Below are positions 319-53,078 of a stretch of 64,000 nucleotides of DNA, piece by piece. Origin of the DNA: a virus; the IMG/VR virus record IMGVR_UViG_3300029358_000325, positions 1 through 64,000 of that record. One strand, given 5' to 3'. The notes beneath the pieces are model-generated. The model saw nothing but the letters and a program-made list of their open reading frames with translations. It had not been told where the DNA came from and did not search any database. Position numbers and translations under genes: made by a program. Numbering within the stretch: the first letter of the stretch is position 1; every line of letters starts with the position of its first letter.

Positions 319-1476
319 TCACATCTGTGCCACTTTTGCAAATTCAGTTTTTATCATATCAGCGTCGATTGATGTGTATACATCGAGTGTAATTTGTACT
401 GAGCTATGCCCCATTAGATATTGAACTGCCTTGATGTTCATGCCGCTGCTAACTTTTCTGGTACAAAAAGTGTGTCGAAGAACGTGAGGTGTGAGATTTG
501 GTAATTGGCACTCTGGGTAAAGACTGTTATACGCCTTTGCAATTTCTCTTAGCTCATATTCAATGTTCCAAGAGGTCTTCGGGGTTCCATTTGAATGAAT
601 TGAGATGAAACCACAATAACCATCGACCATCATCTCGTTTGTTTGTGGCCGACGATTGATAATGGCTTTAATCGCGTGATATGCCTCAGCGCTCAATGGA
701 ATCGTCCGAAACCCAGCTTTTGATTTTGGATCTGTGATGTAGAGTTCTCCTTTTGAGGTTTTGATGAGTTGTTTATCAATTACAACTTCATGTTTCACAA
801 AGTCAATGTCCGAAAGTGTTAACCCACAAAATTCACTTACGCGAATTCCAGTTTCATACAAAAATACGATGTCATCATAATACTTACGAAAGACTCGATC
901 ACATAAAACGAATTCAAGCAAATTAGAATACTGTTGTTCAGTTAATGCGACTCTTTTTTTAGTGTCGTTTTTTATAACTTCATTCAGCTGAAAATCAAAC
1001 GGATTCTTTAAAATTAAATCATCTTCTTGAGCCATTTTAAACGCAGCTTTTATCAGTGTTTTTATAGTTTTTATTGTACTGTATTTTAACCCATTCTGAC
1101 TAAAATCAATAATCAGTTGTTTTGCGTCTGAAATCTTTACGTCAATAATTTTTGTATTACCAATAGACGTATCTTTCAACTTGTTTATTGTTGTATGATA
1201 TGTCTTCAAGCTCGATTTCTTTATTGATGTTTTTTTAAATTCGTAATATCTTATAAGAAACTGATATGTTGTTATTTTACCGCCTTCAAAGTTTATCCTT
1301 TGAGAAATTATTTTACTAGCATTATTTTCTTTTTCTCGAAGAACTTTTAAATCTTTCGCATAAATTGTGTGACGTTTTCCAGTTGTATCAGTCCATCGAT
1401 ATTGATATATTCCATCCTTTCTTTGGCTTTCGCCGTCTTTTAAGACTCTACCTTTACTATCTTTACGTCTTTCCAT
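319..1476 (-). CDS. int: Tyrosine-type site-specific integrase. The likely start is the internal ATG at 1476, which has an AAGGAG SD; the track over-extends the ORF from a TTG at 1539.
   Basis: C-terminal catalytic region LRHTFCTRKVSSGMNIKAVQYLMGHSSVQITLDVYT (H-x-x-R ... LGH ... Y) is typical of the phage integrase family. It sits at the left end next to an Xis-like gene. Confidence 0.8.
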   Translation of the reverse strand: MERRKDSKGRVLKDGESQRKDGIYQYRWTDTTGKRHTIYAKDLKVLREKENNASKIISQRINFEGGKITTYQFLIRYYEFKKTSIKKSSLKTYHTTINKLKDTSIGNTKIIDVKISDAKQLIIDFSQNGLKYSTIKTIKTLIKAAFKMAQEDDLILKNPFDFQLNEVIKNDTKKRVALTEQQYSNLLEFVLCDRVFRKYYDDIVFLYETGIRVSEFCGLTLSDIDFVKHEVVIDKQLIKTSKGELYITDPKSKAGFRTIPLSAEAYHAIKAIINRRPQTNEMMVDGYCGFISIHSNGTPKTSWNIEYELREIAKAYNSLYPECQLPNLTPHVLRHTFCTRKVSSGMNIKAVQYLMGHSSVQITLDVYTSIDADMIKTEFAKVAQM

Positions 1477-1549
1477 AAACAGACTCCTTACATTTACTAT
1501 AAAGAGCCTTGATGTGACACTATAAGTATACCACACCAAAGCTCTGATT

Positions 1550-1744
1550 TCAAATCGAATAAGACTGGTCTATGTATTTTTCAAGTGCTTTGCGTTTAAT
1601 CAAGCGTTTTGATCCAACCCACAGCACAAGCTGCTTGTCGTCCTTGTCTGTAATTTCTCTTAATTTATGTGTGCCGATATTAGAGTACGCAGCGGCTTCT
1701 TCCACAGTAAGCGTCGTTTTTTCCCAGATTGGGACTTCTTTCAT
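1550..1744 (-). CDS. xis: Excisionase / small HTH DNA-binding protein.
   Basis: 64 aa. TLTVEEAAAYSNIGTHKLREI is an HTH of the Xis/MerR-like type. It lies immediately upstream of int and overlaps the folD stop by ATGA. Confidence 0.45.
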   Translation of the reverse strand: MKEVPIWEKTTLTVEEAAAYSNIGTHKLREITDKDDKQLVLWVGSKRLIKRKALEKYIDQSYSI

Positions 1745-6116: not shown

Positions 6117-7722
6117 AATGATTTTTATTCCTCCCACCCACCCATAAAACATATTTACTCTAATTGCTCAAGTGCATATATCAAATACAAAATTAAAGTC
6201 TTTGTCTTTTCTTTTGTAAGTGTTGCAGAGCTCAATTCCATATCTGGAGCATCACTATAATATGCAAGTTCAACAGAGCCATTCGAGACTCTTACGCCAA
6301 TATCTACGTTGTAAATTCCGTCTGTCGCTTGCAGGAAACCGATTTCATTCCCCTCCATAAATCCTCCGTAAAATTTACCTTTTACCAGAATGAATATTTC
6401 GTTCTAATTGAAGGTGTTTCTACACTTTTTGCAGGATTTTCCAGCATCGCGGCCTTCGCCGTGATTTCATCGATACTCTTTTGGAAATCCTGTAGCTTCT
6501 TCAATTCGCTTTCGATGTCCAGTTTCACTTCGACATTCTCGATAAACCCCATATCCTCAAGGCATTTGCAGTAGCCAGCAATCTCGTTATAGAAGATGTG
6601 ATTGTACTCTTCCAAAAGCGTATGCCCGTCAAACAGCTTTACTTGCCATGCAATTCCAAATGGAGCTTCTTTCTCGTAATGAGATTCGACAGTGTAATAC
6701 TTCATACATACCTCAAATCAGCTTAATACCTTCTGGTTTAACATAATAAACAGAATTATTATACTTAACTACAAGATAACATCCATAAAGATTTTGAATC
6801 ATCTTTTGAATATACACCTCAGCACCTTTTGGGATATCTTCCTTGTGTAAGGCAAGTGCAGTTTTCCAATCTTCGTCCATGAGATTTTCCAAAGCAACGC
6901 CTTTGCGCCCAGTGTATCTATCGTACATTATGTATTCTCCTTACTTAATGCCGTACTTAGCTTTGACCTTCTTCAAAGTCTCACTCTTGTTGTGATAGTC
7001 ATCGCGAGCTGCCTGATAAGAAGTCATCTTCTCTGCAAGGACACGCTTTGCTTCGGCCTCTGCAACGTCAGCCTCTGCCAGCTCCTTGTTCAAAACAAAG
7101 CCGCTCGTCTTGATACCATCAATAAAACCATCCATGCGATCCTTCTTGACACTCTTCTCGCCCATTGCACCAGTATCAGTGTTAAACATCTTCACAACAG
7201 AATCTTCGACACCAGCGATATTGTAAACGTAAAAATATTTAGCCATAATTTAATTCTCCTCGATCTTTTCAAACTTATAAACTGTATTCTCAGTCTGGAC
7301 AATAACATTTTTCTTGTCACTTGAGATGTAATAATCAACAACACAAGATGTGTGCATTGCGCCCGGATAATCATGTCCATCATTATCTTTGATGTATCGG
7401 AAACCAGCTGATTCTCCGATCTTCAGATGCACGATTTTCATTGTCATGCCAATCCAAGTTAGATACCAGCCGTCGTTTCGAGTGCGGCCAGTTACCAGTG
7501 AGATTGCGTTCGTCAGCTCGTACTGATTTTCCATAATCTCATCATCAATCGGATTTTTATGAGTCAATGCAGCATTCGGCATCTTTTCAATTGTGCGTGT
7601 CAAAAGAAGCATGAAATGCATAAACGCATCATGCTTATCCTGCTCAGCATCGATTTCTGCGTACTTGCCCATCCGATACAGAAGCTCGGACGTATCGATT
7701 GTCTTTCCCATAAACACCTCGA

Positions 7723-16739: not shown

Positions 16740-16752
16740 TTATGTAAACCTC

Positions 16753-21586: not shown

Positions 21587-21599
21587 AAAGCCTCCTTGC

Positions 21600-21620
21600 G
21601 TATCCTGTGTTATATAGTTA
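21600..21620 (-). promoter_or_regulatory. Conserved 21-bp motif, copy 1. It is about 15 nt upstream of the ligase ATG, followed by AAGGAGG.
   Basis: The coding strand reads TAACTATATAACACAGGATAC and contains a -10-like TATAAC. Confidence 0.45.
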
Positions 21621-21630
21621 TAGCTAATAA

Positions 21631-21666
21631 AGAAAGGCTTGTCGTTACGAGCAAGCCATTTCTTTC
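21631..21666 (-). terminator. Imperfect hairpin between motif copies 2 and 1.
   Basis: AGAAAGGCTTG-TCGTTACGAG-CAAGCCATTTCTT. Confidence 0.3.
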
Positions 21667-21668
21667 CC

Positions 21669-21689
21669 GTATCCTGTATTATATAGTTA
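21669..21689 (-). promoter_or_regulatory. Conserved 21-bp motif, copy 2. It lies in tandem, 48 bp upstream of copy 1.
   Basis: The coding strand reads TAACTATATAATACAGGATAC, with a perfect TATAAT. Confidence 0.4.
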
Positions 21690-21727
21690 AAGAGAGAATT
21701 TTAAGCCTCCGGGATGGAGACTTTTTA

Positions 21728-21748
21728 TAACTATATTATACAGGATAC
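21728..21748 (+). promoter_or_regulatory. Conserved 21-bp motif, copy 3, in inverted orientation. It forms a 21-bp inverted repeat with copy 2.
   Basis: The plus strand reads TAACTATATTATACAGGATAC, 12 nt after the helicase stop. Confidence 0.4.
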
Positions 21749-21759
21749 TCACATAATTG

Positions 21760-24700
21760 TCAATGCTTTTCTGCAAATTCTTTCCGTAAAAATTCCTTCA
21801 GGAACGTCCGCTTGTATGGCACTCTCGAAGTCTTTACAGCCCGATCAAGAGCATGAGTTTCGGCGCAAATCACACAATACTTCTTGGCACGAGTGATGGC
21901 CGTATAGAGCCATTCTCTCGTCAGCATCAAGTATGCAGAGTTGTCCATACCAACAATCACATACGGAGCCTCACTGCCCTGCAGTTTATGACAACTCAAA
22001 GCATAAGCAAGTTCAAGTGTTGCCCAGATGTTATTCCCACCAAAGTAATGAGGAATAAATATCGTGCCCCACTGGTCAAAATCAACCAGAATAAAGCTAT
22101 TCTCAATCTTTCTGATAATGCCACGGTTTCCGTTGAACACCGGACACTTCTCTTCCTTTTTCTTTGTCTTGAGATTATATGTATGAAGTTCGTAGTTGTT
22201 CTTGTTGATAATAACCTGATCGCCCTCACGCAGAGTGTACACTCTATCCTTGCCATCACCATAGATTGTGACCTTTGCTTCTGCTTGACCACTACTCGGA
22301 TTCACGATTTCCTGAATAGCATTATTGACTTCATAGGTGCAAATACTGCCACGAAGCTTCTGTGGAAGTACAATCTGAATCTTCGCACTATCATTCCCCA
22401 CCTTATTATATAAGGTACGGTACTGATTGATGATATGGTTGAACGACTCACTTGCATCCTTATAGATATCAAGCTCCAAATCACGAAGTTCACCACGAAT
22501 CTCACTACCAGCCCAGCCATAAGGCACCAACTGCGTAGCGTTACGAACCTTAATGCTTTCCGTGATAATTGCAGACTTAGCTGCCTGACGATGGATCTTA
22601 GTCAAACGAGCCACAGGAACAACCTTAGATGCAAGCATATCCTTGAAGATGTTACACATACCAATACTCTCAAGCTGGCCGTCATCACCAATCATGATGA
22701 ATCGCTTGCCGGTCTCGATTGCCTGAATCAAGTCATAGAATAACTGAGCTCCAACCATAGAGGTCTCATCCAGAATAATAATGTCTTCTTCAAGAGGATT
22801 GTCCTTGTTATGGATGAAACCACCATTCTCGATGTCGTAGCCAAGAAGACGGTGAATGGTCTTTCCATCCTGACCAGTAATCTCCTGCATACGAGCTGCG
22901 GCACGACCAGAAAGTGCAGTCTGAGCAAAAGACTTACCACGAAGAACCTTTAAAACACCAGCGACAACGGTACTTTTACCAGTGTTGCCTGTGACACAAA
23001 TTCTTCCATTATATCTTGTCAGAAACATATGAGACGGAACAGTAAAACAATACTTATATCCATCGCTTGAACGAACAATATCAATATCGCTTTTACTGCC
23101 TTTTGTCATAAGAGAAACTTTTCCATTCGAGTGTTGCACAATATGAACATTATACTCTGTGACAATTTTACCGTGCCGTTCAATATTTGATTCATATACA
23201 ACAGAACGATAACCACAAGAAGAAAATGCGAACTGAATAAAATCTGCCGTTTCTTTAATCAGTGTACTAAAATCTTTCCGTCTCCCCTCTTTCACATGAC
23301 CGTCCCAATTTAGAATCTCATCGCAAATCACCTCTAGCTGATGATGATTACAGTTATACCAATACGAAGTAAATCTTTTTTCTTTTCTTGGAGCGTAAAA
23401 GACAAAGTTCGAATATTCCAAGTCTTTTGGATTCCACTGATGCTCATCAAAGTATCTACCACTTTCCGAAAGAAGTCTTCTCATGCGAAGTTTCTTTCGC
23501 TCTTTTTTTACGTTTACTCTACACCAAGCTGATTTATGATCCTTCAAAAACGATCCATCGCAAATAACAGCACACATTAGTCTAATATCAGCATCGCTCA
23601 AATCGATTCCTGGGCCATCATAATTAAACGTTGTTATAAAATGTCCGTTAAACCCAGACTTTCGTTTAACATTTCTTTGATACAACTCCCACATTGGGAT
23701 TTTAGCTAAATTGTTTTTACTGGTCAAGTAAACAACATTATGCTCTGCACTCAATAGTTGATTGATACTACCCGACTTGTTTTTCATGTGATATAGATAT
23801 TCACATTTGAATTTTACATATTTCTCAGGCTCAACAAGCGTTGTAGTCCCATTTTCATTATATTGAAGAACTTTGTCGCCCTTAACATAATCTTTTATTT
23901 TTTTCCATTGGACACCATTAAAGAACTCCATCTCTGCATCGAGGCATCCGCCGTAGCCTGTTAAGATACAGACGTTGCTAGAGCATACCTTTTTAATAGC
24001 ATCTCTTTGCTCCTCAGTATACTCGATGCCAAGCGCATTCCCGGCTTCATTGATTGCAGCATCCATGTTTCGACCAATCGGCTCAACAGGTGCATCCGCC
24101 AGTCGCTTGATTTCCTTTGCGATTTTATCTTCAAGATTCCACACTCTAGTTAAAGCAAATTCCTGACGGTCATCACTCCACCAAAGCGTTTCACGGACAT
24201 CATGTAAATGGAAAAGTGCCCTTTTGATGACTTCTTGATCACCCTCGTTCAAATCAAGTTCCTTAATACAGCTATTGATTGTCTGGTTTGCCGGGATAAT
24301 AGAGTTACCTTCTTCGGCACGAGCGGCAAGAAAGTGCATGACGTAAGCTTCAATTCTGAATTGCGAATTGTGCTTTAAGCCCATATTCAAAGCAAGAGCG
24401 TCAGCTTTTTTCCAGCCGATACCATACGCATCATCGATCAGGACGTAAGGGTTCTCCTCAATTTTTCTTACCAGAGTGTCTGCACCGTGATACTGACGAA
24501 CAAGCTTTTCAATAGCATTGGAAGTCAAACCGTACTCAATCAGTTTCGTGTACGCTTCACTGTTGTCAATGTTGTTTTCAAAAGATTCAATAATCTTTTG
24601 CGCTCGACCTTCCGTAATGCCGCTAACAGTACAAAGAGACTTGACATCACCGTTCTTGACGATTTCATACGGGTTCTCAAATGCTTCATAAAGCAGCTCA

Positions 24701-36082: not shown

Positions 36083-36169
36083 ATATGTAAATTCCTCCGT
36101 TTTTATTAAAATTATTTATCGTACCTACGATATTTATTTTGACGTAAATACGATAAAACTTTTCTTTTA

Positions 36170-36478: not shown

Positions 36479-36499
36479 GTATCCTGTTTAATATAGCTA
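36479..36499 (-). promoter_or_regulatory. Conserved 21-bp motif, copy 4. It lies 16 nt upstream of the ATG of the 36170-36463 gene, with AAGGAG between.
   Basis: The coding strand reads TAGCTATATTAAACAGGATAC. Confidence 0.45.
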
Positions 36500-40676: not shown

Positions 40677-40697
40677 GTATCCTGTGTTATATAGCTA
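40677..40697 (-). promoter_or_regulatory. Conserved 21-bp motif, copy 5. It lies directly upstream of the SD and start region of the permuted MTase.
   Basis: The coding strand reads TAGCTATATAACACAGGATAC, followed by TAAAAGGAGG. Confidence 0.45.
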
Positions 40698-40800: not shown

Positions 40801-40876
40801 TGGTGGAATAGTCGAGATTTGAACTCGTGTCTGACAATTATAAGTTGTCGGCTCTAACCAGCTGAGCTACTATTCC
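40801..40876 (-). tRNA. tRNA-Ile, anticodon UAU.
   Basis: On the reverse complement, the acceptor stem is GGAATAG/CTATTCC, the D stem GCTC/GAGC, and the anticodon stem GACAA/TTGTC with loop CTTATAA. T loop TTCAAAT, discriminator A, CCA encoded. Confidence 0.65.
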
Positions 40877-40902
40877 ATATAAACGCCAACTTTCGTCGGC
40901 GC

Positions 40903-40975
40903 GATGCCAGTGGAGGGATCGAACCTCATCTCTCGGTGTTTCCGAGCGCTTTTACCATTAAGCTATCCAGCCGTA
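40903..40975 (-). pseudogene. Degenerate tRNA-like element. D and T arms are intact; the anticodon loop and acceptor pairing are aberrant.
   Basis: The reverse complement has D stem GCTT/AAGC with loop AATGGTAA and a T arm GAGGTTCGATCCCTC. The anticodon stem CTCGG/CCGAG encloses only 5 nt (AAACA). No 7-bp acceptor pairing can be drawn and no CCA is encoded. Confidence 0.35.
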
Positions 40976-41103
40976 TACCTCAGAATTTAATTCCTACTAT
41001 CAAAGCTACGTCGCGTTCCAATATGATCACTCTTGGCAACCATGTCGTAACATATAGGTTCCTTTCGGCTCTGAGCAACCGGTGCAGCGTCAGGGGCTGC
41101 GTG

Positions 41104-41179
41104 TGGAGCGACTGACGGGGGACGATCTCGCAACATTCAGATTGGAAATCTGACGCTCTACCAATTGAACTACAGTCGC
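41104..41179 (-). tRNA. tRNA-Gly, anticodon UCC.
   Basis: Acceptor GCGACTG/CAGTCGC, D arm TAGTTCAATTGGTAGAGC, and a perfect anticodon stem TCAGA/TCTGA with loop TTTCCAA. Discriminator U, CCA encoded. The T loop is non-canonical (ATCGTCC). Confidence 0.6.
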
Positions 41180-41360
41180 ATAAGAACCAACCTAGCAACT
41201 GGCATCACTAGGCTGGGATACTCGGCTTACAAAGGCACGCTGCACTCTTTCGGGCGAGCCGAGAATAACGCACATGAAAAATTTCGTTAGCCCATTTCGG
41301 GGTGGTATCTCGCACAGGCGCAGCCGGATTTGACCGCTAAAAATCCTACCCATACGAGAT

Positions 41361-41436
41361 TGGAGCAACCAACGGGACTCGAACCCGCCCTCTCTGCTTG
41401 GAAGGCAGATGTGCTAACCACTAACACCATAGCTGC
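41361..41436 (-). tRNA. tRNA-Gly, anticodon UCC (second, divergent copy).
   Basis: Acceptor GCAGCTA/TGGTTGC with G-U pairs. Anticodon stem TCTGC/GCAGA with loop CTTCCAA. T arm GCGGGTTCGAGTCCCGT. Discriminator U, CCA encoded. Confidence 0.55.
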
Positions 41437-41543
41437 ACAATCACCCAGCTTACAAAGCACTACTGCACCATCACTGGCGAGCCGGGAATAATAGTGGCAG
41501 TCAAAGGAGATCAACAAAACGGTACGCAACCATTCTATGACCG

Positions 41544-41625
41544 TGGTGCGGATAGTGGGCATCGAACCCACACGCCGAAGCACCAGATCCTAAATCTGGC
41601 GTGTCTGCCACTCCACCATATCCGC
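41544..41625 (-). tRNA. tRNA-Leu, anticodon UAG (type II).
   Basis: Acceptor GCGGATA/TATCCGC. Anticodon stem CCAGA/TCTGG with loop TTTAGGA. Long variable arm with a GC-TTCG-GC hairpin. T arm GTGGGTTCGATGCCCAC. Discriminator A, CCA encoded. Confidence 0.7.
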
Positions 41626-41630
41626 ATAAA

Positions 41631-41701
41631 TTGCGCCAACAGGGGTCGAACCTGTGATGGAGGAGTCAAAGTCCTCTGCCTTACCGCTTGGCGATGGCGC
41701 A
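41631..41701 (-). tRNA. tRNA-Gln, anticodon UUG.
   Basis: U1-A72 acceptor TGCGCCA/TGGCGCA. D arm TCGCCAAGCGGTAAGGCA, as in bacterial tRNA-Gln. Anticodon stem GAGGA/TCCTC with loop CTTTGAC. T arm ACAGGTTCGACCCCTGT. No CCA encoded. Confidence 0.7.
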
Positions 41702-41788
41702 TCATATACCCAGCTTACTACGTCACACTGCTCCGTTTCCAGAGAGCTGGGAATAATGTGAATGAAAATTCTACATACCCTTTCGGAC

Positions 41789-41864
41789 TGGCCTGAGCGA
41801 CAAGATTTGAACTTGCGGTCCCCTGTTCCCAAAACAGGTGCGATACCAACTTCGCTACGCCCAG
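41789..41864 (-). tRNA. tRNA-Pro, anticodon UGG.
   Basis: C1-G72 acceptor CTGGGCG/CGCTCAG. D stem GCGA/TCGC. Anticodon stem CCTGT/ACAGG with loop TTTGGGA. T loop TTCAAAT. CCA encoded. Confidence 0.7.
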
Positions 41865-41871
41865 ATATAAA

Positions 41872-41954
41872 TGCGCCCGGCGGGACTTGAACCCGCACGC
41901 CATCTCTGGCAGAAGATCTTAAGTCTCCTGTGTCTGCGATTCCACCACGGGCGC
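41872..41954 (-). tRNA. tRNA-Leu, anticodon UAA (type II).
   Basis: Acceptor GCGCCCG/CGGGCGC. Anticodon stem GGAGA/TCTTC with loop CTTAAGA. Long variable arm GCCAGAGATGGC. T arm GCGGGTTCAAGTCCCGC. Discriminator A, no CCA encoded. Confidence 0.65.
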
Positions 41955-42154
41955 ATATAAAAGAAGATCAGAAACAGCCAACCATTCGTTTTACATTCTA
42001 GTTTTCTGACGAACCGAAGAGTATTTATCCGATAGCTAGTCGGCTTACACCTTATTTCTCTTCTTGTCTGGCTTGACATCCTTTACCGGTATGACGTCTT
42101 TCCGGTCGCCAATGTACGGCCAATCCCCGAACGAGCTAGAACAACTGATCTTCA

Positions 42155-42239
42155 TGGTAGGGATAATCGGATTTGAACCGATACGTCTTTCGACACTTGA
42201 GTTTGAATCAAGCGTGGCTGCCAATTTCACCATATCCCC
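42155..42239 (-). tRNA. tRNA-Leu, anticodon CAA (type II).
   Basis: Acceptor GGGGATA/TATCCCT. Anticodon stem CTTGA/TCAAG with loop TTCAAAC. Long variable arm GTGTCGAAAGACGT. T arm ATCGGTTCAAATCCGAT. Discriminator A, CCA encoded. Confidence 0.65.
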
Positions 42240-42356: not shown

Positions 42357-44576
42357 TTAGCTCTTCTGCTGACTTGCGTAGAACTCATTCCGCAGCTGAA
42401 TAATACCCTTCTTGCAGAAAGACTCTTGATCTTTCTCTCGTTGTTCACGCATCCAACCATAGAACAGGTTATCCTCGGCAGTAAACAACTTTGCGGTATT
42501 TTCATAATAGCCACGTTTTTGAACGCTCTGCATGACACCACGCAAGAACTTCCAGTGCTTATAATACGGAAGCTTCAGCTTAAACATGAAATTATTGCTG
42601 TCTCGCAAAACAAAGCCTTCAACGTGTTCAAAACCATGATGCAGATAGTTCTCGTTCATGACTTCTTCGTACCAAGGATAGAATTCACTCCAGTTCTCAA
42701 AGGTTTTAACCTTCTCCTTAATCTGCAGATGACACTTCTCGGCTACACGCTTCAAATCATCATAATCCATTACACTGAAATTCATATCATTTGCAATAAT
42801 ATCCAGCAAAACAATGTGCGGTTTCTTATATTCGATGATATGTGCATCATTCACAGGATCAATCACCTCGAAGATGATGGAGCCATTCTCTTTTGCAACT
42901 TCTTTCAGATTCTTACGATCTTCATCAGAAGTCGTATCCATGAGAATCTTTCGGAACATATCTGCAAAAGGCCCATCAGGAGTGGATTTACTTGCAATGA
43001 ACAGACCATCCTGTTCTGCATCATACGAAATGATACCAAGAAATCCGTTCTCTTTTAGATATGCAGTCACCGGGAACTTCAAAGTGTTCTGTAGGTTTCC
43101 AATTCTCGTTTCATTCCGCTCATCAACCGCAAAGAACTTATCATAGCTTCGAGCTACAATCTTATTCGTCTTTGTGTTAATGAACAACCCTCTTGCTTTG
43201 GTAGAAACCTCATCCCAGTGCTTCTTATAAAATGCTTCACGAGAGAAGTTGAAAGAAGAAATATCTCCGAATCGCTTCTCAAACACATATTTGCTTTGAC
43301 GCATCTTACTAACAAGTTCTGCGTTATCGAACTCAGTTTTCATTTCAACGGCAGTTTCAGTCTTTGGCTCCTCTTTTCGGAATACATCATTCTTGGTTTC
43401 TACGCATTTGATAGGCTGACCGTGTTCAAGCTCCACACAACGAAGATATCCACCAAACTCGATTTTGCCTTCAAGATTGTAGCACCGATGACCCATATCA
43501 ATAGGAACATCCTGTACATTTCGATGGCCGAAGATCTGAATATAGCTATCCGGCATCGACTTTTCCCAAGACTCAGCCACGGTCAGTATATCAGGATAGC
43601 GGCCTACGCCTTTAATCATCTGATCCGCAGACACGAACGGAAGAAAATAAGGAAGATAGCTCAGACCACCGTGACTTACGAAATACCGCTTACCATCATA
43701 CTCAAAGTAGACACACTGGCCGACTCTGGAATAGATCTTACGAGCAGTGTTCTTGTCAATACCGGCTTTAAAGAGCTGCGGACTAGTGTAGTTTGCAAAC
43801 TCTTCACTTTGAACCGGTTTATCATGCCCCCACTTGTTCAGCCAATGCTCGTGGTTCCCTTCCAAAAGGATCACATTCTTGCGGTTGTTATTTACAACAT
43901 CACACAAGAACTTGAATACCTCAACGTTTTCGATGCCACGATCGAGATAATCACCAACGAAGATATAAAGCTCGTCGTCCTTCATCTCACCAAGGTATTC
44001 ACTCAAGCAGGTATAGCAGCCATGAATATCACCGATGATATGTATCTTTTTCCACTGGTTAAAGTCATTCGGGCAGTAGTTCAAATCGGACATCACATCC
44101 GTAGTAGAAGGAAGAACTGTCACGCCAGAAGGAACTTTTTGAGTAGCAAACCGAGCGTACATCTTATCAATAGCCGCTTCAGGAACTCGCTTTAGCCATT
44201 CTCTCTGAGCGTTTCTTCGTTTGCATTCCTCGATCGGAAGGTCCGTCATATCAATAACATACATCCGATAACGATACTGTTTTGCAAGATTCTTATAACA
44301 ATTCATTTCGACCGTCTTGGAATTCGTTGCATCAATCACAGTAAACTCGCCATGGCTCATCCGCACCTCAAGCAGTTTGAAAAGCATCTCCCATACAACA
44401 TCATCATTCTGCTGAGAAATCTCCATCTGCCCATCAGGTGTTTCCTGTGCGCTCTGGCACATAAGGCGAAGTGTATCAGCACTCAATACGTACTGCTCAA
44501 GATTATGCTCTTTAATATAGGTGGACTTCCCGCAACCGGGTGCTCCACGGAACAGTAAAAGTGTTCTCATCTGCAT
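42357..44576 (-). CDS. pnkP: Pnkp-like trifunctional RNA repair enzyme: 5'-OH polynucleotide kinase, metallophosphoesterase-type 2',3'-phosphatase, and a ligase-like nucleotidyltransferase.
   Basis: N-terminal P-loop kinase LLLFRGAPGCGKSTYIKEH. Central calcineurin-like domain with IIGDIHGCY, FVGDYLDRGIENVE, LLEGNHE and FGHRN. The C-terminal domain has a K-x-x-G motif (STKARGLFINTKTNKIVARSYDKFF). The domain order matches bacterial Pnkp. It is preceded by a terminator, the 21-bp motif and an SD. Confidence 0.6.
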   Translation of the reverse strand: MQMRTLLLFRGAPGCGKSTYIKEHNLEQYVLSADTLRLMCQSAQETPDGQMEISQQNDDVVWEMLFKLLEVRMSHGEFTVIDATNSKTVEMNCYKNLAKQYRYRMYVIDMTDLPIEECKRRNAQREWLKRVPEAAIDKMYARFATQKVPSGVTVLPSTTDVMSDLNYCPNDFNQWKKIHIIGDIHGCYTCLSEYLGEMKDDELYIFVGDYLDRGIENVEVFKFLCDVVNNNRKNVILLEGNHEHWLNKWGHDKPVQSEEFANYTSPQLFKAGIDKNTARKIYSRVGQCVYFEYDGKRYFVSHGGLSYLPYFLPFVSADQMIKGVGRYPDILTVAESWEKSMPDSYIQIFGHRNVQDVPIDMGHRCYNLEGKIEFGGYLRCVELEHGQPIKCVETKNDVFRKEEPKTETAVEMKTEFDNAELVSKMRQSKYVFEKRFGDISSFNFSREAFYKKHWDEVSTKARGLFINTKTNKIVARSYDKFFAVDERNETRIGNLQNTLKFPVTAYLKENGFLGIISYDAEQDGLFIASKSTPDGPFADMFRKILMDTTSDEDRKNLKEVAKENGSIIFEVIDPVNDAHIIEYKKPHIVLLDIIANDMNFSVMDYDDLKRVAEKCHLQIKEKVKTFENWSEFYPWYEEVMNENYLHHGFEHVEGFVLRDSNNFMFKLKLPYYKHWKFLRGVMQSVQKRGYYENTAKLFTAEDNLFYGWMREQREKDQESFCKKGIIQLRNEFYASQQKS

Positions 44577-44591
44577 CTCCCTTTCTAATAG

Positions 44592-44612
44592 GTATCCTGT
44601 GTTATATAGTTA
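44592..44612 (-). promoter_or_regulatory. Conserved 21-bp motif, copy 6. It sits between a hairpin terminator and the Pnkp SD-ATG.
   Basis: The coding strand reads TAACTATATAACACAGGATAC, then CTATTAGAAAGGGAGATGCAGATG. Confidence 0.45.
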
Positions 44613-44625
44613 GCATGTTAAAATG

Positions 44626-44650
44626 AAGGGGCCGAAGCCCCCTGTTTTTA
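44626..44650 (-). terminator. Rho-independent-type hairpin terminator. It could act in both directions.
   Basis: GGGGC-CGAA-GCCCC stem-loop flanked by T-runs on both strands. Immediately after the stop of 44648-45574. Confidence 0.5.
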
Positions 44651-45574
44651 ATTTTCATGGAAATATTCAACCCAACCTTTATATCCTTGCCGGAAACTAA
44701 GATAGGCAACTTTACTGCACTTTCTTCCGATAATGTCCGCAAGAGGACCTTTACCATTTCCGAAACTAAGTTCTGCAAGATTAAATTTTGGATGAGTTTT
44801 ACAGTAGTTATAAACCTTGATATACTCACAATTTCTGGCTAAATATCTTTGATCTAAGGTTTTTGAATGATGCCTTTTTTCGAGGATATCGTTCAACCTC
44901 GAAAAATAGACATGAATTGAAATTATAGACGTCTTTGGATCACTGTTTACACCGGGTTTATCCTTCGTTTTGCGTAGGATATAATCGCCATTCATGACAT
45001 AAAATGTTCTATAACCGCTCTTATTGGGGGCATCATACTGTTTCATCTCGTAACATTGCTTGATAATATCCATTAACCTTGCGTCAACATCAGTCTTATC
45101 AAGAACGGTATTAGATTCAAAATCCACATCGTTAATTGTTAGATTAGAAATCTCATCGGAAGTAAGACCAATCCAGTACAAAACAGCAATTACGTTCATA
45201 CGAATCTGATATGGCTCTTCGTACTTATTTAAGAAGTCAACAAATTCGTCAACCGACGCAAAATAACTGTCATTGTACATATCATCTGCGCTTACATCGC
45301 TCTCTGAAAAGTCAGCCAGATCATACATGCTTGTTTCGTTTTCACTTTTGATGTAGCCTGTGATTATTGACTTCACATTTTTAAACGAACGACTCGAGTT
45401 CACCCAATTATATTTGGCAAACATCTTTACGAAATCATCTTTTGTGAAGTCAAACAACTCATACCCACGCTCGGCCTCGTAATCCATGACGTGACGCATC
45501 GTCGATGCAACAAACTCACCGCTTCTATCAGAATACTTTTCGGCAAAAGCTTTGATTTTTTCTTCAGTAAGCAT
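44648..45574 (-). CDS. Hypothetical protein with weak resemblance to a degenerate tyrosine-recombinase fold.
   Basis: 308 aa. IRMNVIAVLYWIGLTSDEISNLTINDVDF resembles recombinase box I but lacks the catalytic Arg. Followed by a hairpin terminator. Confidence 0.25.
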   Translation of the reverse strand: MLTEEKIKAFAEKYSDRSGEFVASTMRHVMDYEAERGYELFDFTKDDFVKMFAKYNWVNSSRSFKNVKSIITGYIKSENETSMYDLADFSESDVSADDMYNDSYFASVDEFVDFLNKYEEPYQIRMNVIAVLYWIGLTSDEISNLTINDVDFESNTVLDKTDVDARLMDIIKQCYEMKQYDAPNKSGYRTFYVMNGDYILRKTKDKPGVNSDPKTSIISIHVYFSRLNDILEKRHHSKTLDQRYLARNCEYIKVYNYCKTHPKFNLAELSFGNGKGPLADIIGRKCSKVAYLSFRQGYKGWVEYFHEN

Positions 45575-45627
45575 AGTGGCACACTCCTTCTTATTATATG
45601 TAGTGTACCATTAAACCTTATAAAAAA

Positions 45628-46047
45628 TCAAGCAAATGCGGCAAAATTCTGAAATTCCATGGTATGTTGTACGCCGCTCAGGAATGCTGCAAGCAAAAAC
45701 GGTTCATCCTTGCATCTTGCCATTGCGATCATATTCATCTGACGCTCCGACAAGACACCAAGTTTTTTAATGAACTGTCCTTTGTTAAGTGTATCAGTCT
45801 CTTCACATAGAACGATACTATCAACCTCTAGGAAATCACAATCTTCCTTTGAGAGTAGAACATGAACCGGAGAGCGCTTGTATATTCTGGAAGACAACGG
45901 ATTCCCTTTAATTGTTGGACTAAAGAAGTTGCGCTTATTGTTGCTCGTCACAACGAACGGTCGAATACCGCGCTGCTGATGACCTGTCGCATTGGATAGA
46001 TCAACCAACCAAACCTCTCCGACCTTTGGGTCAATATTGTTGTCCAT
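45628..46047 (-). CDS. mazF: MazF/PemK-family endoribonuclease (toxin-like). No recognisable antitoxin partner.
   Basis: KVGEVWLVDLSNATGHQQRGIRPFVVTSNN fits the MazF/PemK N-terminal signature (G-x-I/V-x-x-V-D/F ... G-x-E-Q-x-G-x-R-P-x-V-V). GAGGAG SD. Confidence 0.55.
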   Translation of the reverse strand: MDNNIDPKVGEVWLVDLSNATGHQQRGIRPFVVTSNNKRNFFSPTIKGNPLSSRIYKRSPVHVLLSKEDCDFLEVDSIVLCEETDTLNKGQFIKKLGVLSERQMNMIAMARCKDEPFLLAAFLSGVQHTMEFQNFAAFA

Positions 46048-46083
46048 AGTCTTTCTCCTCTATAATAGTGTAGCTCCGTTCCA

Positions 46084-46104
46084 TAGCTATATTATACAGG
46101 ATAC
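46084..46104 (+). promoter_or_regulatory. Conserved 21-bp motif, copy 7, in inverted orientation. It lies 37 nt upstream of the mazF-like ATG but points the opposite way.
   Basis: The plus strand reads TAGCTATATTATACAGGATAC. Confidence 0.35.
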
Positions 46105-46138
46105 CTTTACAGAAGTCAATAGGTTTTCAAAAATATTT

Positions 46139-46465
46139 TTAGTGCCCGTACAACTCTGGATTCTCTGATACGAACACGCTGGTGTTATCGAATATCATCT
46201 CATACGCTTTCTCTTTATCGCCCGGCCTAAACTCAACCCTCCTTACTTCGTGACATTCTTGCCGCAACTCAATATGACTTTCGTTTCCAAAAAATCCAAT
46301 GCCTTTGACAATCCCATGCGTCTCTACGCCAATGTCGTCCATCTTTTTGCAGATCATGTGAACATCCACACCATTGCAAATAAAACAGACCCACACTCGC
46401 TTTTTTCTTATGTACTTCAAAAAGTTCTCAACCTGTATAACTCCCAAAACCTTTTTCTCACTCAT
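46139..46465 (-). CDS. Hypothetical protein. Cys/His-rich, not MazE-like.
   Basis: 108 aa. ORF track only. Confidence 0.25.
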   Translation of the reverse strand: MSEKKVLGVIQVENFLKYIRKKRVWVCFICNGVDVHMICKKMDDIGVETHGIVKGIGFFGNESHIELRQECHEVRRVEFRPGDKEKAYEMIFDNTSVFVSENPELYGH

Positions 46466-46589
46466 CGAAATACCGCCTTCCGATCACATAAACAACTTCC
46501 AAGATATATTATACACATCTTTTTGTTTTCGTCAATATGTACCACACCATTTTGTTGTGCTACTTTATCAAAATTTTAGATGATGCCAT

Positions 46590-47216
46590 TTACTCAGCAT
46601 CATCCACAACCAGCTTCGCGTCATAATAAAACCTGTGTGCGCCAAATTGCCCAGCAAAGGTTGCTCCGCGCTCGTGCCAACTGCCTGGAGCAGCCGCCGG
46701 GGTTACAAACCATTGAATAGGTTTGTCTGAAATCTTAGCGCCGTAATCAAACACCATAGACACAGCCAGTTCGTTCTCTGCCGTCACCTTCCTATTATAT
46801 AAGGAACTATAACCATACTTCTTAAAGACCTGCTGGATGGTTAGACTATCAAGTACAGCGGAATCATAAAGGCATTGGGCCACAGCCATCTGGCCTTCCA
46901 AACTGTCAGCACCTGCTTCACAAGCAACGATCTGCTCCGCAAGAGCACGTTCGTCATCAGTGAGTTTATGTTTGCCCTGACCAAAGTTTACAATCCGCAT
47001 CTCAGTAACGGTTTCTACAATGACTTCTGGCTCCTTTTCCTCTTGCTGCACTACACTCACTGCCGGAGGGCTATTATTATAAAGGTATGAATCACCATGA
47101 TTCTGAATTACCGGACTGATCTTCGATACAAGATTCCCCGCCAGCAGGCACATTATACACACAATAGCAATACTTTGCTCACGATTTATTAACAAATTAG
47201 AGTTAATAAGAATCAC
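46590..47216 (-). CDS. SleB/CwlJ-like cell wall hydrolase with an N-terminal membrane anchor.
   Basis: N-terminal hydrophobic segment IAIVCIMCLLAGNLV. The C-terminal LAEQIVACEAGADSLEGQMAVAQCLYDSAV resembles the SleB-type hydrolase core (AEArGE...GqxAVAxVixNR). Confidence 0.4.
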   Translation of the reverse strand: MILINSNLLINREQSIAIVCIMCLLAGNLVSKISPVIQNHGDSYLYNNSPPAVSVVQQEEKEPEVIVETVTEMRIVNFGQGKHKLTDDERALAEQIVACEAGADSLEGQMAVAQCLYDSAVLDSLTIQQVFKKYGYSSLYNRKVTAENELAVSMVFDYGAKISDKPIQWFVTPAAAPGSWHERGATFAGQFGAHRFYYDAKLVVDDAE

Positions 47217-47240
47217 TTCCTTTCAAAAATATTGGTTTTA

Positions 47241-47993
47241 TCAGATCTTTAAAGACTCCTCATTTACGGTCATCACAAGCTCGTTGACCCGCTTCCAATC
47301 AACATTGTCCGGCAGGTAAGTCTCGCTCTTGTCAACTGACAATCTGCTTTCATAGGCCGGAATCAGTTGCTGACGAATCTCTTTGTAATCATATTCACCG
47401 TTGCGAAGCTGCGTCAGGAAGTTATGATCATTGTCTCGATAGGTTTTAATTTCACCTTTTTCCAAGATGTCAAAGAGCATCAGGTATACACGAACTGCAT
47501 TCATTACCGTCTTGTGCATTTTCTTTGAATTATGGTAGATTGGATCTTTGTCTAATGTATCAGACTTCTGAATCAGCTTGCCTGCAAAACCTCCAAACGA
47601 GTAAATCACACGCTTTGAAAGGAATAGGTTTTTGTTGTCCATAAGTAGCTGCGTCATTGGGTTATAGCTAATAACGAGTTCATCGGCATTTCCTAACTGT
47701 TCCAGCATATTGGGATTTCCACTGCACATCAATTTCACAGCTTTGTTAAAGCTATAAATCGTTGTATCGGTCTGAGTGTCCACATAATGCTCAAACTCAC
47801 CGAGACCAAGAAGGTCTTCTTTTGAATTCAATGCTACACCTCGAATGTCAAGATCTGAGCCCTCAACATTTGTCCCGTAAGCATGACTGCCACCGACCGT
47901 TACGAACATCATATGCTTGCCAAGATGCTCATTCTCCCGAAGAAAACTATATTCTGGGAAGCATAACGCTCCAAGCAATTCATTTCTTGTCAT
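47241..47993 (-). CDS. Pol-beta-superfamily nucleotidyltransferase.
   Basis: GGSHAYGTNVEGSDLDIRGV is the G-S-x(9-13)-D-x-D nucleotidyltransferase signature. About 250 aa, similar in size to predicted standalone NTases. Confidence 0.5.
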   Translation of the reverse strand: MTRNELLGALCFPEYSFLRENEHLGKHMMFVTVGGSHAYGTNVEGSDLDIRGVALNSKEDLLGLGEFEHYVDTQTDTTIYSFNKAVKLMCSGNPNMLEQLGNADELVISYNPMTQLLMDNKNLFLSKRVIYSFGGFAGKLIQKSDTLDKDPIYHNSKKMHKTVMNAVRVYLMLFDILEKGEIKTYRDNDHNFLTQLRNGEYDYKEIRQQLIPAYESRLSVDKSETYLPDNVDWKRVNELVMTVNEESLKI

Positions 47994-48261
47994 AGAATCA
48001 CCTCTATTAGAACTTAGTTTTTATCAGATGTCTTTCCACCACTCGGAAATATCATCATCGTTAATTTCTTTCTTTGTTCCGACCTCACGAAAGCATTCGC
48101 AGATACTATCCCAAATTGCAATCACAAGATCACTACTTCTTTCAAGAGTATGCCCGAAGTAGTCCTTGTAATAAAGGTTAAGCATAAACGATTTTCCATT
48201 CATTCCATAAGTTGGAATTGGTTCATCAGCAACTTTAATCCACATACGGCCTCCTTAAATC

Positions 48262-48474
48262 TTAACTTTTATAAATCCGTTTATTCCATGCATTTACTGC
48301 ATCCGAAAGCGTATTATTATCCGGCATTCCACAATTAACAAGATCATCATAATACGCTTTTGTTCTCAGTCCGCAATAATCACATACGACTTGCGCTCTA
48401 AATTTAAAAAGCGTTGCTGGGCCACCGCAACATGGGCATTGTTTCAAATTATCCATTTCGACCACACTTTCCAT
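48262..48474 (-). CDS. lar: Lar-family restriction alleviation protein (Zn-ribbon).
   Basis: LKQCPCCGGPA...CDYCGL plus C-terminal DAVNAWNKR. This matches the Lar-family CPFCG ... AWNRR layout. Confidence 0.45.
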   Translation of the reverse strand: MESVVEMDNLKQCPCCGGPATLFKFRAQVVCDYCGLRTKAYYDDLVNCGMPDNNTLSDAVNAWNKRIYKS

Positions 48475-52586: not shown

Positions 52587-53078
52587 ACTTTAAACAGTAT
52601 TTTCCGTAAGACAATCCCTCGGCATCCGCAAGTTTAATAACATCGCTGAATGTCAAGATTGGCTTTTTGCTTCGTTCCTGTTCTCGTCTCTTTCTTTCAT
52701 AAGCCTGTCGCGCTTCGATTCTTACTATCCTGCGGCAATGATCACAATACTCATGATTTATAGCAGCCGGCGCACCACAAACCTTACAGTGTCCGTTTCC
52801 TCTGATAGTAGGCATACCTTACACCTCGAACTTATCAATCTTCCAGTGATGACGATAATAACTTTCACCACTACAAACAACAGATGCTTCCGCAGCTTCG
52901 CACTATGTCTCATCATCGCTCACAGGCCGTAAGTCATTCTTGCTTTCATTAAACAGAAATACCATTTTATCAATTGCTTTGACTCTATCCTTTGTGACCA
53001 TAATCACATTATCTTCTGCGTAAAAGTCACTGGAATCAATACATTCGTGCAAAATATAGACCTTCATTTTTATGTACC

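Follow-up and report, generated by a model that had tools for sequence, protein, structure and literature searches.

We analysed 64,000 nucleotides (nt) of viral DNA, positions 1 to 64,000 of the IMG/VR virus record IMGVR_UViG_3300029358_000325. This stretch, which we call the window, is about half of a prophage, and whatever is reported below as not found in the window applies to that half. Every plausible gene of the window is encoded on the minus strand. One of them, mazF, is predicted to encode an endoribonuclease of the MazF/PemK class and lies between a small upstream open reading frame (ORF), orfU, and a gene whose product is distantly homologous to MrpR/SroF, which acts as master repressor in SPbeta and phi3T (Table 1). 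An earlier note on this DNA, made from the sequence alone, had described mazF as an orphan, or solitary, toxin gene. The sizes it gave for the neighbours, 108 amino acids (aa) upstream and 308 aa downstream, both on the minus strand, are correct. The word orphan holds in that no antitoxin was detected; it does not hold in that mazF is paired with the co-oriented MrpR/SroF-like gene, which we call mrpR, across a 53-nt gap in 10 of 11 lineages.

Table 1. Features of the mazF operon and other sites discussed in the text (window positions).
Feature	Position	Strand	Description
Tyrosine integrase	319-1539	-	PHROG 1, 5e-63
Putative excisionase	1550-1744	-	64-aa ORF, assigned by position only
21-bp motif copy	21600-21620	+
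21-bp motif copy	21669-21689	+
21-bp motif copy	21728-21748	-	inside second consensus promoter
21-bp motif copy	36479-36499	+	upstream of 97-aa ORF heading the replication module
21-bp motif copy	40677-40697	+	upstream of DNA methyltransferase gene
21-bp motif copy	44592-44612	+	15 nt upstream of Pnkp-Rnl start, directly after the operon terminator
Intrinsic terminator-like hairpin	44643-44627	-	GC-rich, GGGGCCGAAGCCCC; closes the operon
mrpR (mrpR/sroF-like gene)	44648-45574	-	308-aa integrase-fold, probably non-catalytic DNA-binding protein (FPR_23110)
mazF-mrpR spacer	45627-45575	-	53 nt; no promoter-like or terminator-like site in scan
UACAUA	45597-45602	-	22 nt before mrpR start; proposed MazF processing site
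mazF	45628-46047	-	139 aa, ATG to stop; predicted MazF/PemK endoribonuclease
MazF C-terminal extension	45631-45720	-	residues 110-139, motif ARCxDEPFLxxAFLxGVQxTxxFxxFA
21-bp motif copy at P2	46084-46104	-	GTATCCTGTATAATATAGCTA; 37 nt from mazF ATG
Promoter P2	46119-46091	-	TTGACT, 17 nt, TATAAT; 11 of 12 consensus matches; serves mazF-mrpR
orfU	46139-46465	-	108-aa fast-evolving small ORF upstream of mazF; not a canonical antitoxin
Promoter P1	46535-46508	-	TTGACG, 16 nt, TATAAT; upstream of orfU; no motif copy
Terminator-like hairpin	46606-46577	-	overlaps stop of 208-aa ORF

The N-terminal segment with GEVWLVDL and GHQQRGIRPFVV, on which the MazF/PemK call had been based, is present in the ORF, and the class is upheld by Pfam, PHROG and the predicted fold. 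The product scores 70.1 bits (cut-off 23.1; E = 2.1e-19) with Pfam PemK_toxin (PF02452) over residues 8-109, which cover profile positions 1-103 of 109, and also matches PHROG 1936, ‘MazF-like growth inhibitor’ (7.5e-22). By exact sequence match it is identical to CBL02487.1/WP_015538008.1, annotated as ‘growth inhibitor’, from Faecalibacterium prausnitzii SL3/3. A sequence search of the PDB gave the MazFs of S. aureus (SaMazF, 5e-14) and B. subtilis (BsMazF or EndoA, 5e-11) as the best matches, and these are its closest solved relatives. In the alignment, GIRPFVV of the phage protein corresponds to GVRPVVI and LSSR to ITGR, which places R29 on the catalytic R25 and S52 on the catalytic T48 of SaMazF and BsMazF. 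All 34 MazF family members aligned have R29, and all have Ser or Thr at position 52; the concern that the ORF may lack catalytic residues is not borne out. The phage protein also keeps the equivalents of G18, P26, N36, and K85, residues that are conserved among UAC-type MazFs (PMC8634880). Its AlphaFold2 model (predicted local distance difference test, pLDDT, 88) has the MazF core, and the top 50 PDB matches of the model in Foldseek are all MazF/MoxT/EndoA (best 4mzp, E = 4.3e-11, template modelling score 0.68/0.81). From sequence and model, the ORF is a predicted and catalytically plausible MazF/PemK endoribonuclease. It resembles S. aureus and B. subtilis MazF (EndoA/YdcE) in fold, in identity (30-36%), in the catalytic Arg and Thr/Ser, and in the four conserved equivalents. 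It differs from the MazFs of chromosomal mazEF in being encoded by a prophage with no upstream MazE, in having Gln at the Glu20 equivalent, and in a two-helix C-terminal extension.

The extension is found in all 34 family members, with D114, E115, P116, L118, F122, and F132 invariant, and its helices (116-123 and 130-138) are modelled at pLDDT 83-90. No solved MazF among the Foldseek matches, which span about 112 columns, reaches it. Remote relatives of 28-50% identity carry a similar extension. Many of the remote relatives (P0157, P0159, P0160, P0168, P0173, and others) are 230-470 aa long and match the MazF profile in two to four separate stretches, which makes them tandem or fused MazF domains. 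Lengths far above 120 aa are also common among viral PemK-like proteins.

The gene downstream of mazF encodes a distant MrpR/SroF homologue, judged by profile comparison. A profile of the 308-aa protein and its orthologues matches PDB entries 9rd5/9rgl (E = 1.2e-5, 245 positions), whose chain sequence is that of phi3T_97, which is SroF, and alignment of the family with phi3T_97 by hhalign gives a probability of 93.5% (E = 2.4e-7, 249 columns) at about 18% identity. The orthologues in lineages L001 and L007 pass the cut-off of the Pfam family MrpR_N_CB (32-34 bits). Compared with XerA and the Tn1549 Int, the position of the catalytic Arg I is T or G (GLT, GVT, GYG); other catalytic positions are not reliably alignable. 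SPbeta and phi3T have MrpR/SroF as their integrase-fold master repressor. It binds DNA as a monomer, at a long asymmetric box that is scattered over the phage genome and is also found at the promoter of its own operon (PMC10516654; bioRxiv 10.1101/2025.11.27.690993).

We found no antitoxin for MazF in the window. Neither ORF flanking mazF matches the MazE/AbrB, ribbon-helix-helix (RHH), or PemI/Kis families in Pfam, and none of the 80 small window ORFs compared with Pfam falls into the MazE, AbrB, RHH, or PemI families. A six-frame phmmer search of the window with phi3T AimX and MazE sequences gave only matches with E > 2, and no YosL-like or AimX-like ORF was detected there. No homologue of AimR/AimP turned up in the window scans, none of which was aimed at AimR. 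PADLOC has no match in six neighbouring proteins. orfU has no Pfam, PHROG, or PADLOC match and only close homologues, and its model has a YojF/PH-like beta fold. The earlier view that the flanking ORFs are not MazE, Kis, or PemI antitoxins agrees with the Pfam results, the orfU model, and the window-wide scans. The layout also departs from canonical toxin-antitoxin coupling: orfU and mazF are 91 nt apart with a consensus promoter in the gap and no translational coupling, and the gap between mazF and the 308-aa gene is 53 nt.

The Cys and His positions of orfU (C27, H36, C39, H64, C71, and H108) are conserved in close homologues, not in the counterparts from diverged lineages, and suggest a possible metal site. 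We also considered orfU as a Sar-type antirepressor; this is not supported, given an hhalign probability of 0.3% against phi3T Sar and the reassortment of orfU and repressor alleles described below. The only point in its favor is suggestive: in four lineages a divergent HTH_3 gene precedes orfU, which is the position of sar beside yopS in phi3T.

We compared the locus in eleven lineages whose MazFs are 60-100% identical. An orfU-like ORF of 100-143 aa, mazF, and an MrpR-like gene of 308-348 aa occur in this order in 10 of the 11. L001 has an equivalent hairpin after its repressor gene, and L001, L004, and L007 have equivalent TTGAC(A/T) promoters upstream of mazF. In the diverged lineages MazF is 60-70% identical, the repressor orthologues 23-27%, and the orfU proteins 11-30%. 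Among 77 close loci (L009-L088) mean identity is 98.8% for MazF, 85.7% for orfU, and 87.3% for the repressor, so MazF is strongly constrained between two fast-evolving genes. The orfU and repressor alleles are reassorted among these loci (rho 0.19), and the conserved mazF may act as a recombination joint between the two diversifying genes. Distant phage MazFs (Psychrobacillus phage Perkons, Enterocloster phages CB457P1 and PMBT24, NatCom gut phages, and Thomasclavelia TR-TP1) have unrelated neighbours, again with no MazE. Solitary phage MazFs are therefore common, and the pairing with a repressor is specific to this clade.

The promoter region is also conserved. The -35 and -10 boxes of P2 are kept throughout the 39 distinct upstream variants that close relatives show; the -35 box and the 21-bp motif described below are essentially invariant, with single-base substitutions only, and the nine bases between them vary freely. 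No SOS box (GAAC-N4-GTTC) was found close to P1 or P2. An imperfect dyad (TATAATATAGCTA, 9 nt, TAGCTACACTATTATA; 46048-46104, minus strand) lies downstream of the P2 -10 box and extends exactly to the ribosome-binding site of mazF. Among L009-L088 correlated changes are seen in its outer arms (TATAATG with CATTGTA), and it could act as a dyad at the DNA level or form an RNA hairpin in transcripts that read through from P1.

The MazFs of B. subtilis, S. aureus, and C. difficile recognize UACAU, and the S. thermophilum enzyme recognizes UACAUA (PMC10893535; PMC8634880; bioRxiv 10.1101/2023.04.27.537455). We ranked hexamers without presupposing a motif; for the window, expected counts came from a second-order Markov model. 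On the sense strand of the window no hexamer is more over-represented than TACATA (rank 1 of 2931; 42 observed, 13.7 expected, z = 7.7), which has 14 copies on the antisense strand. In flanking DNA from nine other lineages (64 kb) it comes second of 3534, behind AAGGAG (44 observed, 17.6 expected). The 14.2 kb of mazF and repressor coding sequence from ten lineages contain no TACATA (9.5 expected, P = 7e-5), and this is the strongest depletion among 1244 hexamers; the next most depleted has P = 1e-3. The orfU sequences contain eight copies in 3.45 kb, and the two genes that the hexamer spares are exactly mazF and the repressor of the operon. As a positive control we used 30 kb of phi3T, a phage for which control by host MazF has been demonstrated experimentally; there TACATA ranks second of 1858 (32 observed, 13.8 expected) and is absent from sroD, sroE, and sroF. 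The hexamer signature is real, is specific to the clade and the coding strand, and is the same as in the phi3T system, where MazF-site hexamers are likewise enriched in phage transcripts and lacking in repressor genes. We infer that UACAUA is the target of the phage MazF; this matches the UACAU motif of its S. aureus and B. subtilis relatives. A k-mer scan of five lineages was discarded, with GC-rich words dominating as a composition effect; the signal needed ten lineages and hexamers.

The 42 window sites are spread over the three reading frames (8, 11, and 11) and intergenic DNA (12), with no extended consensus. At 6934, 16746, 36089, and 53076 (spans 6929-6934, 16741-16746, 36084-36089, and 53071-53076) TACATA lies between a ribosome-binding site and a start codon, and cleavage there would separate the ORF from its ribosome-binding site. 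At 36481, 37633, and 45602 it lies just 5′ of a ribosome-binding site.

The last of these sites is in the mazF-mrpR spacer. The spacers of ten lineages cannot be aligned but for the element GGTAT(T/C)C(T)TACATA, which reads GGTACAC-TACATA in the window. TACATA was the sole hexamer common to the first seven spacers compared. It occurs exactly once in all ten spacers with a repressor gene downstream and is absent from that of L176, which lacks the repressor. Besides the GGTA(C/T)NC-TACATA element, the window spacer contains the Shine-Dalgarno sequence of mrpR and is predicted to form a hairpin, GGUACAC/GUGUGCC. Each of the ten spacers folds better than shuffled sequences (z from -0.5 to -4.7, mean -2.1, four at or below -3), and in most of them the repressor ribosome-binding site is in or next to the 3′ arm and UACAUA occupies the loop or the top of the 5′ arm. 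Between the window hairpin and GGUAUUC/GAAUGCC of L173 and L179 there are two compensatory double changes. An internal maintenance promoter in the spacer is less likely, because there is no -35 partner, TACATA is not in -10 register, and the promoter scan was empty.

The DNA upstream of mazF shares a 21-bp motif, GTATCCTGTRTWATATAGYTA, with six other places in the window (7 copies against 0.01 expected, all between predicted genes). On the coding strand five copies have the form TA(A/G)CTATAT..ACAGGATAC and are followed, after 5-10 nt, by a Shine-Dalgarno sequence. They lie ahead of the DNA ligase gene, a short unit next to it, the 97-aa ORF, and the genes for the methyltransferase and for Pnkp-Rnl; three of these five come after a terminator-like hairpin. 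The other two are reversed and coincide with consensus -35/-10 promoters, those of mazF and of 21728-21748. Because one motif sequence serves in both orientations, it points to a DNA-binding protein rather than a promoter element. At P2 it covers the promoter spacer, the TGTATAAT extended -10 box, and the start (+1) region. The inverted copy reported 37 nt upstream of mazF is therefore real and is opposite to five of the six other copies. The claim drawn from it, that mazF is regulated differently from its neighbours, stands in one respect: at mazF, as at 21728-21748, the motif is embedded in a consensus promoter. In the other respect the motif is the same, and mazF and mrpR are better described as part of one predicted regulon with the other motif-bearing genes, with putative binding of a shared regulator.

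Other lineages have counterparts. In L004 a different motif, TTTGTTATTATATAT, lies on the mazF promoter, with its exact inverse upstream of the Pnkp gene. In L001 a TACTAACAAA-core element is found at the mazF promoter and again upstream of the next gene, as in L004. A 25-mer is present in L007 as three direct copies, one in the mazF leader just past the promoter, one after the repressor gene, and one before yorF. These lineage-specific counterparts would fit an operator that has diverged together with the repressor. Since the site overlaps a strong promoter at P2, negative autoregulation is implied, as at the SPbeta yopM promoter (PMC10516654), and the repressor probably autoregulates P2 through the motif.

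The second reversed copy belongs to an unusual intergenic region at 21590-21760, between the ExoV-like and DNA ligase genes. It overlaps a consensus promoter (TTGACA, 17 nt, TATAAT) that is followed by two terminator-like hairpins and two more motif copies; the region also holds a four-codon mini-ORF (MACS). The unit may be a small RNA or a leader/attenuator.

MazF has been tied to lysogeny in related phages, where host MazF control of SPbeta-type lysogeny is already known. In phi3T, host MazF acts in favor of lysogeny, and the phage transcripts are enriched in its sites (bioRxiv 10.1101/2023.04.27.537455; PMC10769878). In the phi3T sro operon, SroB (phi3T_93) frees host MazF from MazE, and the MazE mimics AimX and YosL block MazF (PMC10769878; bioRxiv 10.1101/2023.04.27.537455). 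We propose, with a little less than even confidence, that the locus described here is a phage-encoded version of this MazF-based brake on the lysis-lysogeny decision, placed within the lysogeny-control operon of an SPbeta-like prophage of about 125-150 kb. The phage MazF would cut U^ACAUA as its closest characterized relatives do. Phage transcripts are rich in the hexamer, including sites in translation-initiation regions, and MazF would damp phage expression, while the mazF and repressor coding regions, which lack the site, would be spared. At the single conserved spacer site, upstream of the repressor ribosome-binding site, the bicistronic mRNA may be processed. With this site in or beside a hairpin that involves the ribosome-binding site, cleavage could uncouple or unmask repressor translation. 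The net effect would be a brake at the RNA level that favors establishment or maintenance of lysogeny. Candidate restraints on MazF are low, autoregulated expression, the C-terminal extension, protein turnover, and adjacent proteins, as well as host MazE or an antitoxin in the remaining half of the prophage; cross-neutralization occurs between UACAU-type systems (PMC10893535). A bolder form of the proposal strikes us as doubtful. It holds that the operon is a self-contained, antitoxin-free RNA switch for lysogeny, in which a UACAUA-specific MazF co-transcribed with the master repressor cuts phage transcripts, in several genes just ahead of the start codon and past the ribosome-binding site, and processes its own mRNA at the conserved spacer site to uncouple or unmask repressor translation, with the host MazEF and arbitrium circuit internalized and simplified and the enzyme restrained by its C-terminal extension or by proteolysis.

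Like the sroA-F (yopM-R) operon of SPbeta/phi3T, the operon ends with an MrpR/SroF-type gene and is accompanied by a long asymmetric operator-like motif in intergenic regions that include its own promoter, and a similar replication module (YorF, AAA_24, YorH) lies downstream. It differs in having two or three genes rather than six, in its anaerobic clostridial gut host in place of Bacillus, and in a repressor only about 18% identical to SroF. MazF is encoded in the operon itself where phi3T has SroB to release host MazF, and MazE mimics of the AimX/YosL type were not detected in the 64-kb window. A MazF without MazE is also tied to a DNA-binding regulator of a developmental decision in Myxococcus xanthus, where the pair is MazF-mx and MrpC (PMC4803016). 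MrpC, however, is an activator of the CRP type encoded 4.4 Mb away, unlike the adjacent integrase-fold putative repressor here, and the MazF-mx model is itself disputed. The phage genes of PHROG 1936 named above likewise have no adjacent MazE. They are 35-39% identical to the MazF studied here, their neighbours are tail genes, a genuine integrase, or a Spx-like gene, and none is functionally characterized; no pairing with a repressor was seen outside the SPbeta-like clade of Faecalibacterium.

Several observations weigh against the proposed brake. The phage MazF is only about 30-36% identical to MazF-sa and MazF-bs and has Gln in place of Glu20 (PMC8634880 for this residue). The pentamer UACAU is only moderately depleted in operon coding sequence (8 against 21, rank 10 of 956), and counts of UACAU in the operon of this window alone give no signal. 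The UACAUA signature could stem from host MazF or another factor, and a polar signal at the DNA level is possible because all genes are on one strand. Close relatives keep the 21-bp motif invariant while their repressors range from 78% to 100% identity; we looked for motif changes that follow the repressor allele among these relatives and saw none, covariation appearing only at deep divergence. The repressor homologue of the window scores 20.8 bits for MrpR_N_CB, under the cut-off of 27, and its role as master repressor and its binding to the motif are putative. On the short contig of L176, methylase genes follow mazF in place of the repressor. Three of the ten spacer z-scores are weak (-0.5 to -1.0), and because the folds differ between lineages we take them as suggestive only. 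With no antitoxin found in a search that took in 64 kb of the prophage, constitutive expression of mazF and repressor in lysogens would require an unexplained tolerance.

The operon could also be a non-canonical type II toxin-antitoxin module for prophage addiction or superinfection exclusion, with MazF neutralized by the MrpR-like protein or orfU, a reading that we consider unlikely. An MrpR-like antitoxin would mean a reversed gene order and an antitoxin that is also the autoregulator, and loss of the prophage or infection stress would free MazF and arrest the cell. The operator-like site at the operon promoter, the tight conserved adjacency, and the lack of a canonical antitoxin in the window fit such a module, and a transcription factor as a surrogate MazF antitoxin is known from M. 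xanthus (PMC4803016). Both neighbours of the near-invariant MazF evolve fast, a behaviour often seen in immunity or antitoxin genes, but orfU and the repressor vary and reassort freely (rho 0.19) against 98.8% identity in MazF, which argues against tight co-evolution. No conserved MazF-binding segment is evident in either protein, orfU has its own promoter and is separated from mazF by 91 nt with no translational coupling, and PADLOC has no match. The module would also leave unexplained the enrichment of UACAUA in phage transcripts and its depletion in the operon. An inert or decaying remnant of an acquired toxin-antitoxin locus, which the lack of an antitoxin and the bare annotation ‘growth inhibitor’ might suggest, is scarcely credible in view of 98.8% mean MazF identity at 77 loci between fast-evolving neighbours, the invariant catalytic Arg and conserved Ser/Thr in 34 homologues, and the promoter and synteny kept across lineages at 60-70% identity.

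The earlier note had proposed host shut-off, anti-defence, or an abortive-infection counter-measure. We found nothing specific in support of these roles; PADLOC gave no matches, and the hexamer statistics favor regulation of the phage’s own transcripts. As an early lytic weapon, MazF would be made when the repressor leaves P2 and would degrade host mRNA or disable an RNA-based defence, in a doomed cell that needs no antitoxin. P2 shares its operator-like motif with early replication genes, which would be derepressed together with it, no antitoxin was found in the window, and solitary MazF-like genes are common in phages in varied contexts, including sewage isolates (of unchecked lifestyle). 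Even so, we regard this as quite unlikely: the conserved partner of mazF is a putative lysogeny repressor under the same promoter, mazF persists in an integrated prophage that is found on more than 1000 contigs, and the candidate hexamer is enriched in the phage’s own transcripts, which would make a host shut-off enzyme self-damaging. A very unlikely alternative pairs RNA breakage with repair. MazF products carry 5′-OH and 2′,3′-cyclic-phosphate ends, which match Pnkp/ligase substrates; the next gene past the operon terminator is a Pnkp-phosphatase-Rnl fusion, and RlaP and eight tRNA genes are nearby. The adjacent kinase-phosphatase-ligase would reseal MazF-made ends, either to inactivate RNA reversibly or to protect tRNA and rRNA from collateral damage. 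Phage Pnkp/Rnl systems, however, classically counter host anticodon nucleases. The ligase gene is absent in L007, L175, and L177 and cut to a kinase-phosphatase in L174, all of which retain mazF-mrpR, and an obligatory coupling of mazF to the RNA-repair genes was rejected on the same ground.

Phage MazF domains are already annotated (PHROG 1936), and mazF is drawn without comment on some F. prausnitzii phage maps (PMC12323421). In the literature we found no description of a phage-encoded MazF in a repressor operon or of the site signature in such phages. The steering of lysis and lysogeny by host MazF in Bacillus SPbeta-like phages was shown only in 2024. If the proposed brake is correct, the principle would be general and independent of a host toxin-antitoxin system and arbitrium signaling, extending to a distant and very prevalent human-gut prophage, and the many phage genes annotated as ‘solitary MazF-like growth inhibitor’ would gain a concrete function. 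F. prausnitzii prophage induction matters for gut ecology.

The MazF and 308-aa protein (FPR_23110) sequences occur on about 900 to more than 1000 contigs, including the 3.2-Mb F. prausnitzii SL3/3 chromosome, and IMG/VR holds many viral contigs of 125-150 kb with the same genes. Relatives carry YorF, YorH, and AAA_24 genes downstream, a synteny like that of SPbeta. Because of the identical SL3/3 proteins, the viral contigs, and this synteny, we assign the window to a large, very prevalent SPbeta-like temperate prophage of F. prausnitzii. The window encodes an anaerobic ribonucleotide reductase, DNA ligase, ExoV-like helicase, a large DNA polymerase, RecJ, a DnaB-like helicase, and a Sak4/AAA_24 protein. 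A megablast search of 44000-48000 against GenBank phages and a tblastn search of the same collection with the 308-aa protein were both empty; the clade is absent from that collection. A profile search of genome contigs, made once with an alignment and once with a single protein, returned no relative.

An integrase and a putative Tn916-type excisionase lie at the low-coordinate end of the window (319-1744) and probably mark one prophage end. The excisionase family is matched by one of the 80 small ORFs scanned (6.9e-21); the scan did not report which. SPbeta itself uses a serine recombinase.

Genes for RNA repair and tRNAs are found around the operon (42357-44576, 47241-47993, and 40801-42239, all on the minus strand). 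The gene after the operon terminator encodes a 739-aa fusion of a kinase, a metallophosphatase, and a T4-Rnl1-type ligase (PF13671, PF00149, and PF09511; PHROG 8238, 3.5e-227), and RlaP, an ‘RNA repair pathway’ nucleotidyltransferase, is encoded near the operon. Rfam matched only eight tRNAs in the window: Ile-TAT, two Gly-TCC, Leu-TAG, Gln-TTG, Pro-TGG, Leu-TAA, and Leu-CAA. This neighbourhood looks like a counter to anticodon nucleases. One small ORF upstream matches the Lar restriction-alleviation family (1.5e-7); it is probably the ORF at 48262-48474 on the minus strand, which has a CPCCGG...CDYCG zinc ribbon. The region from 48 to 63 kb contains several further small zinc-ribbon ORFs.

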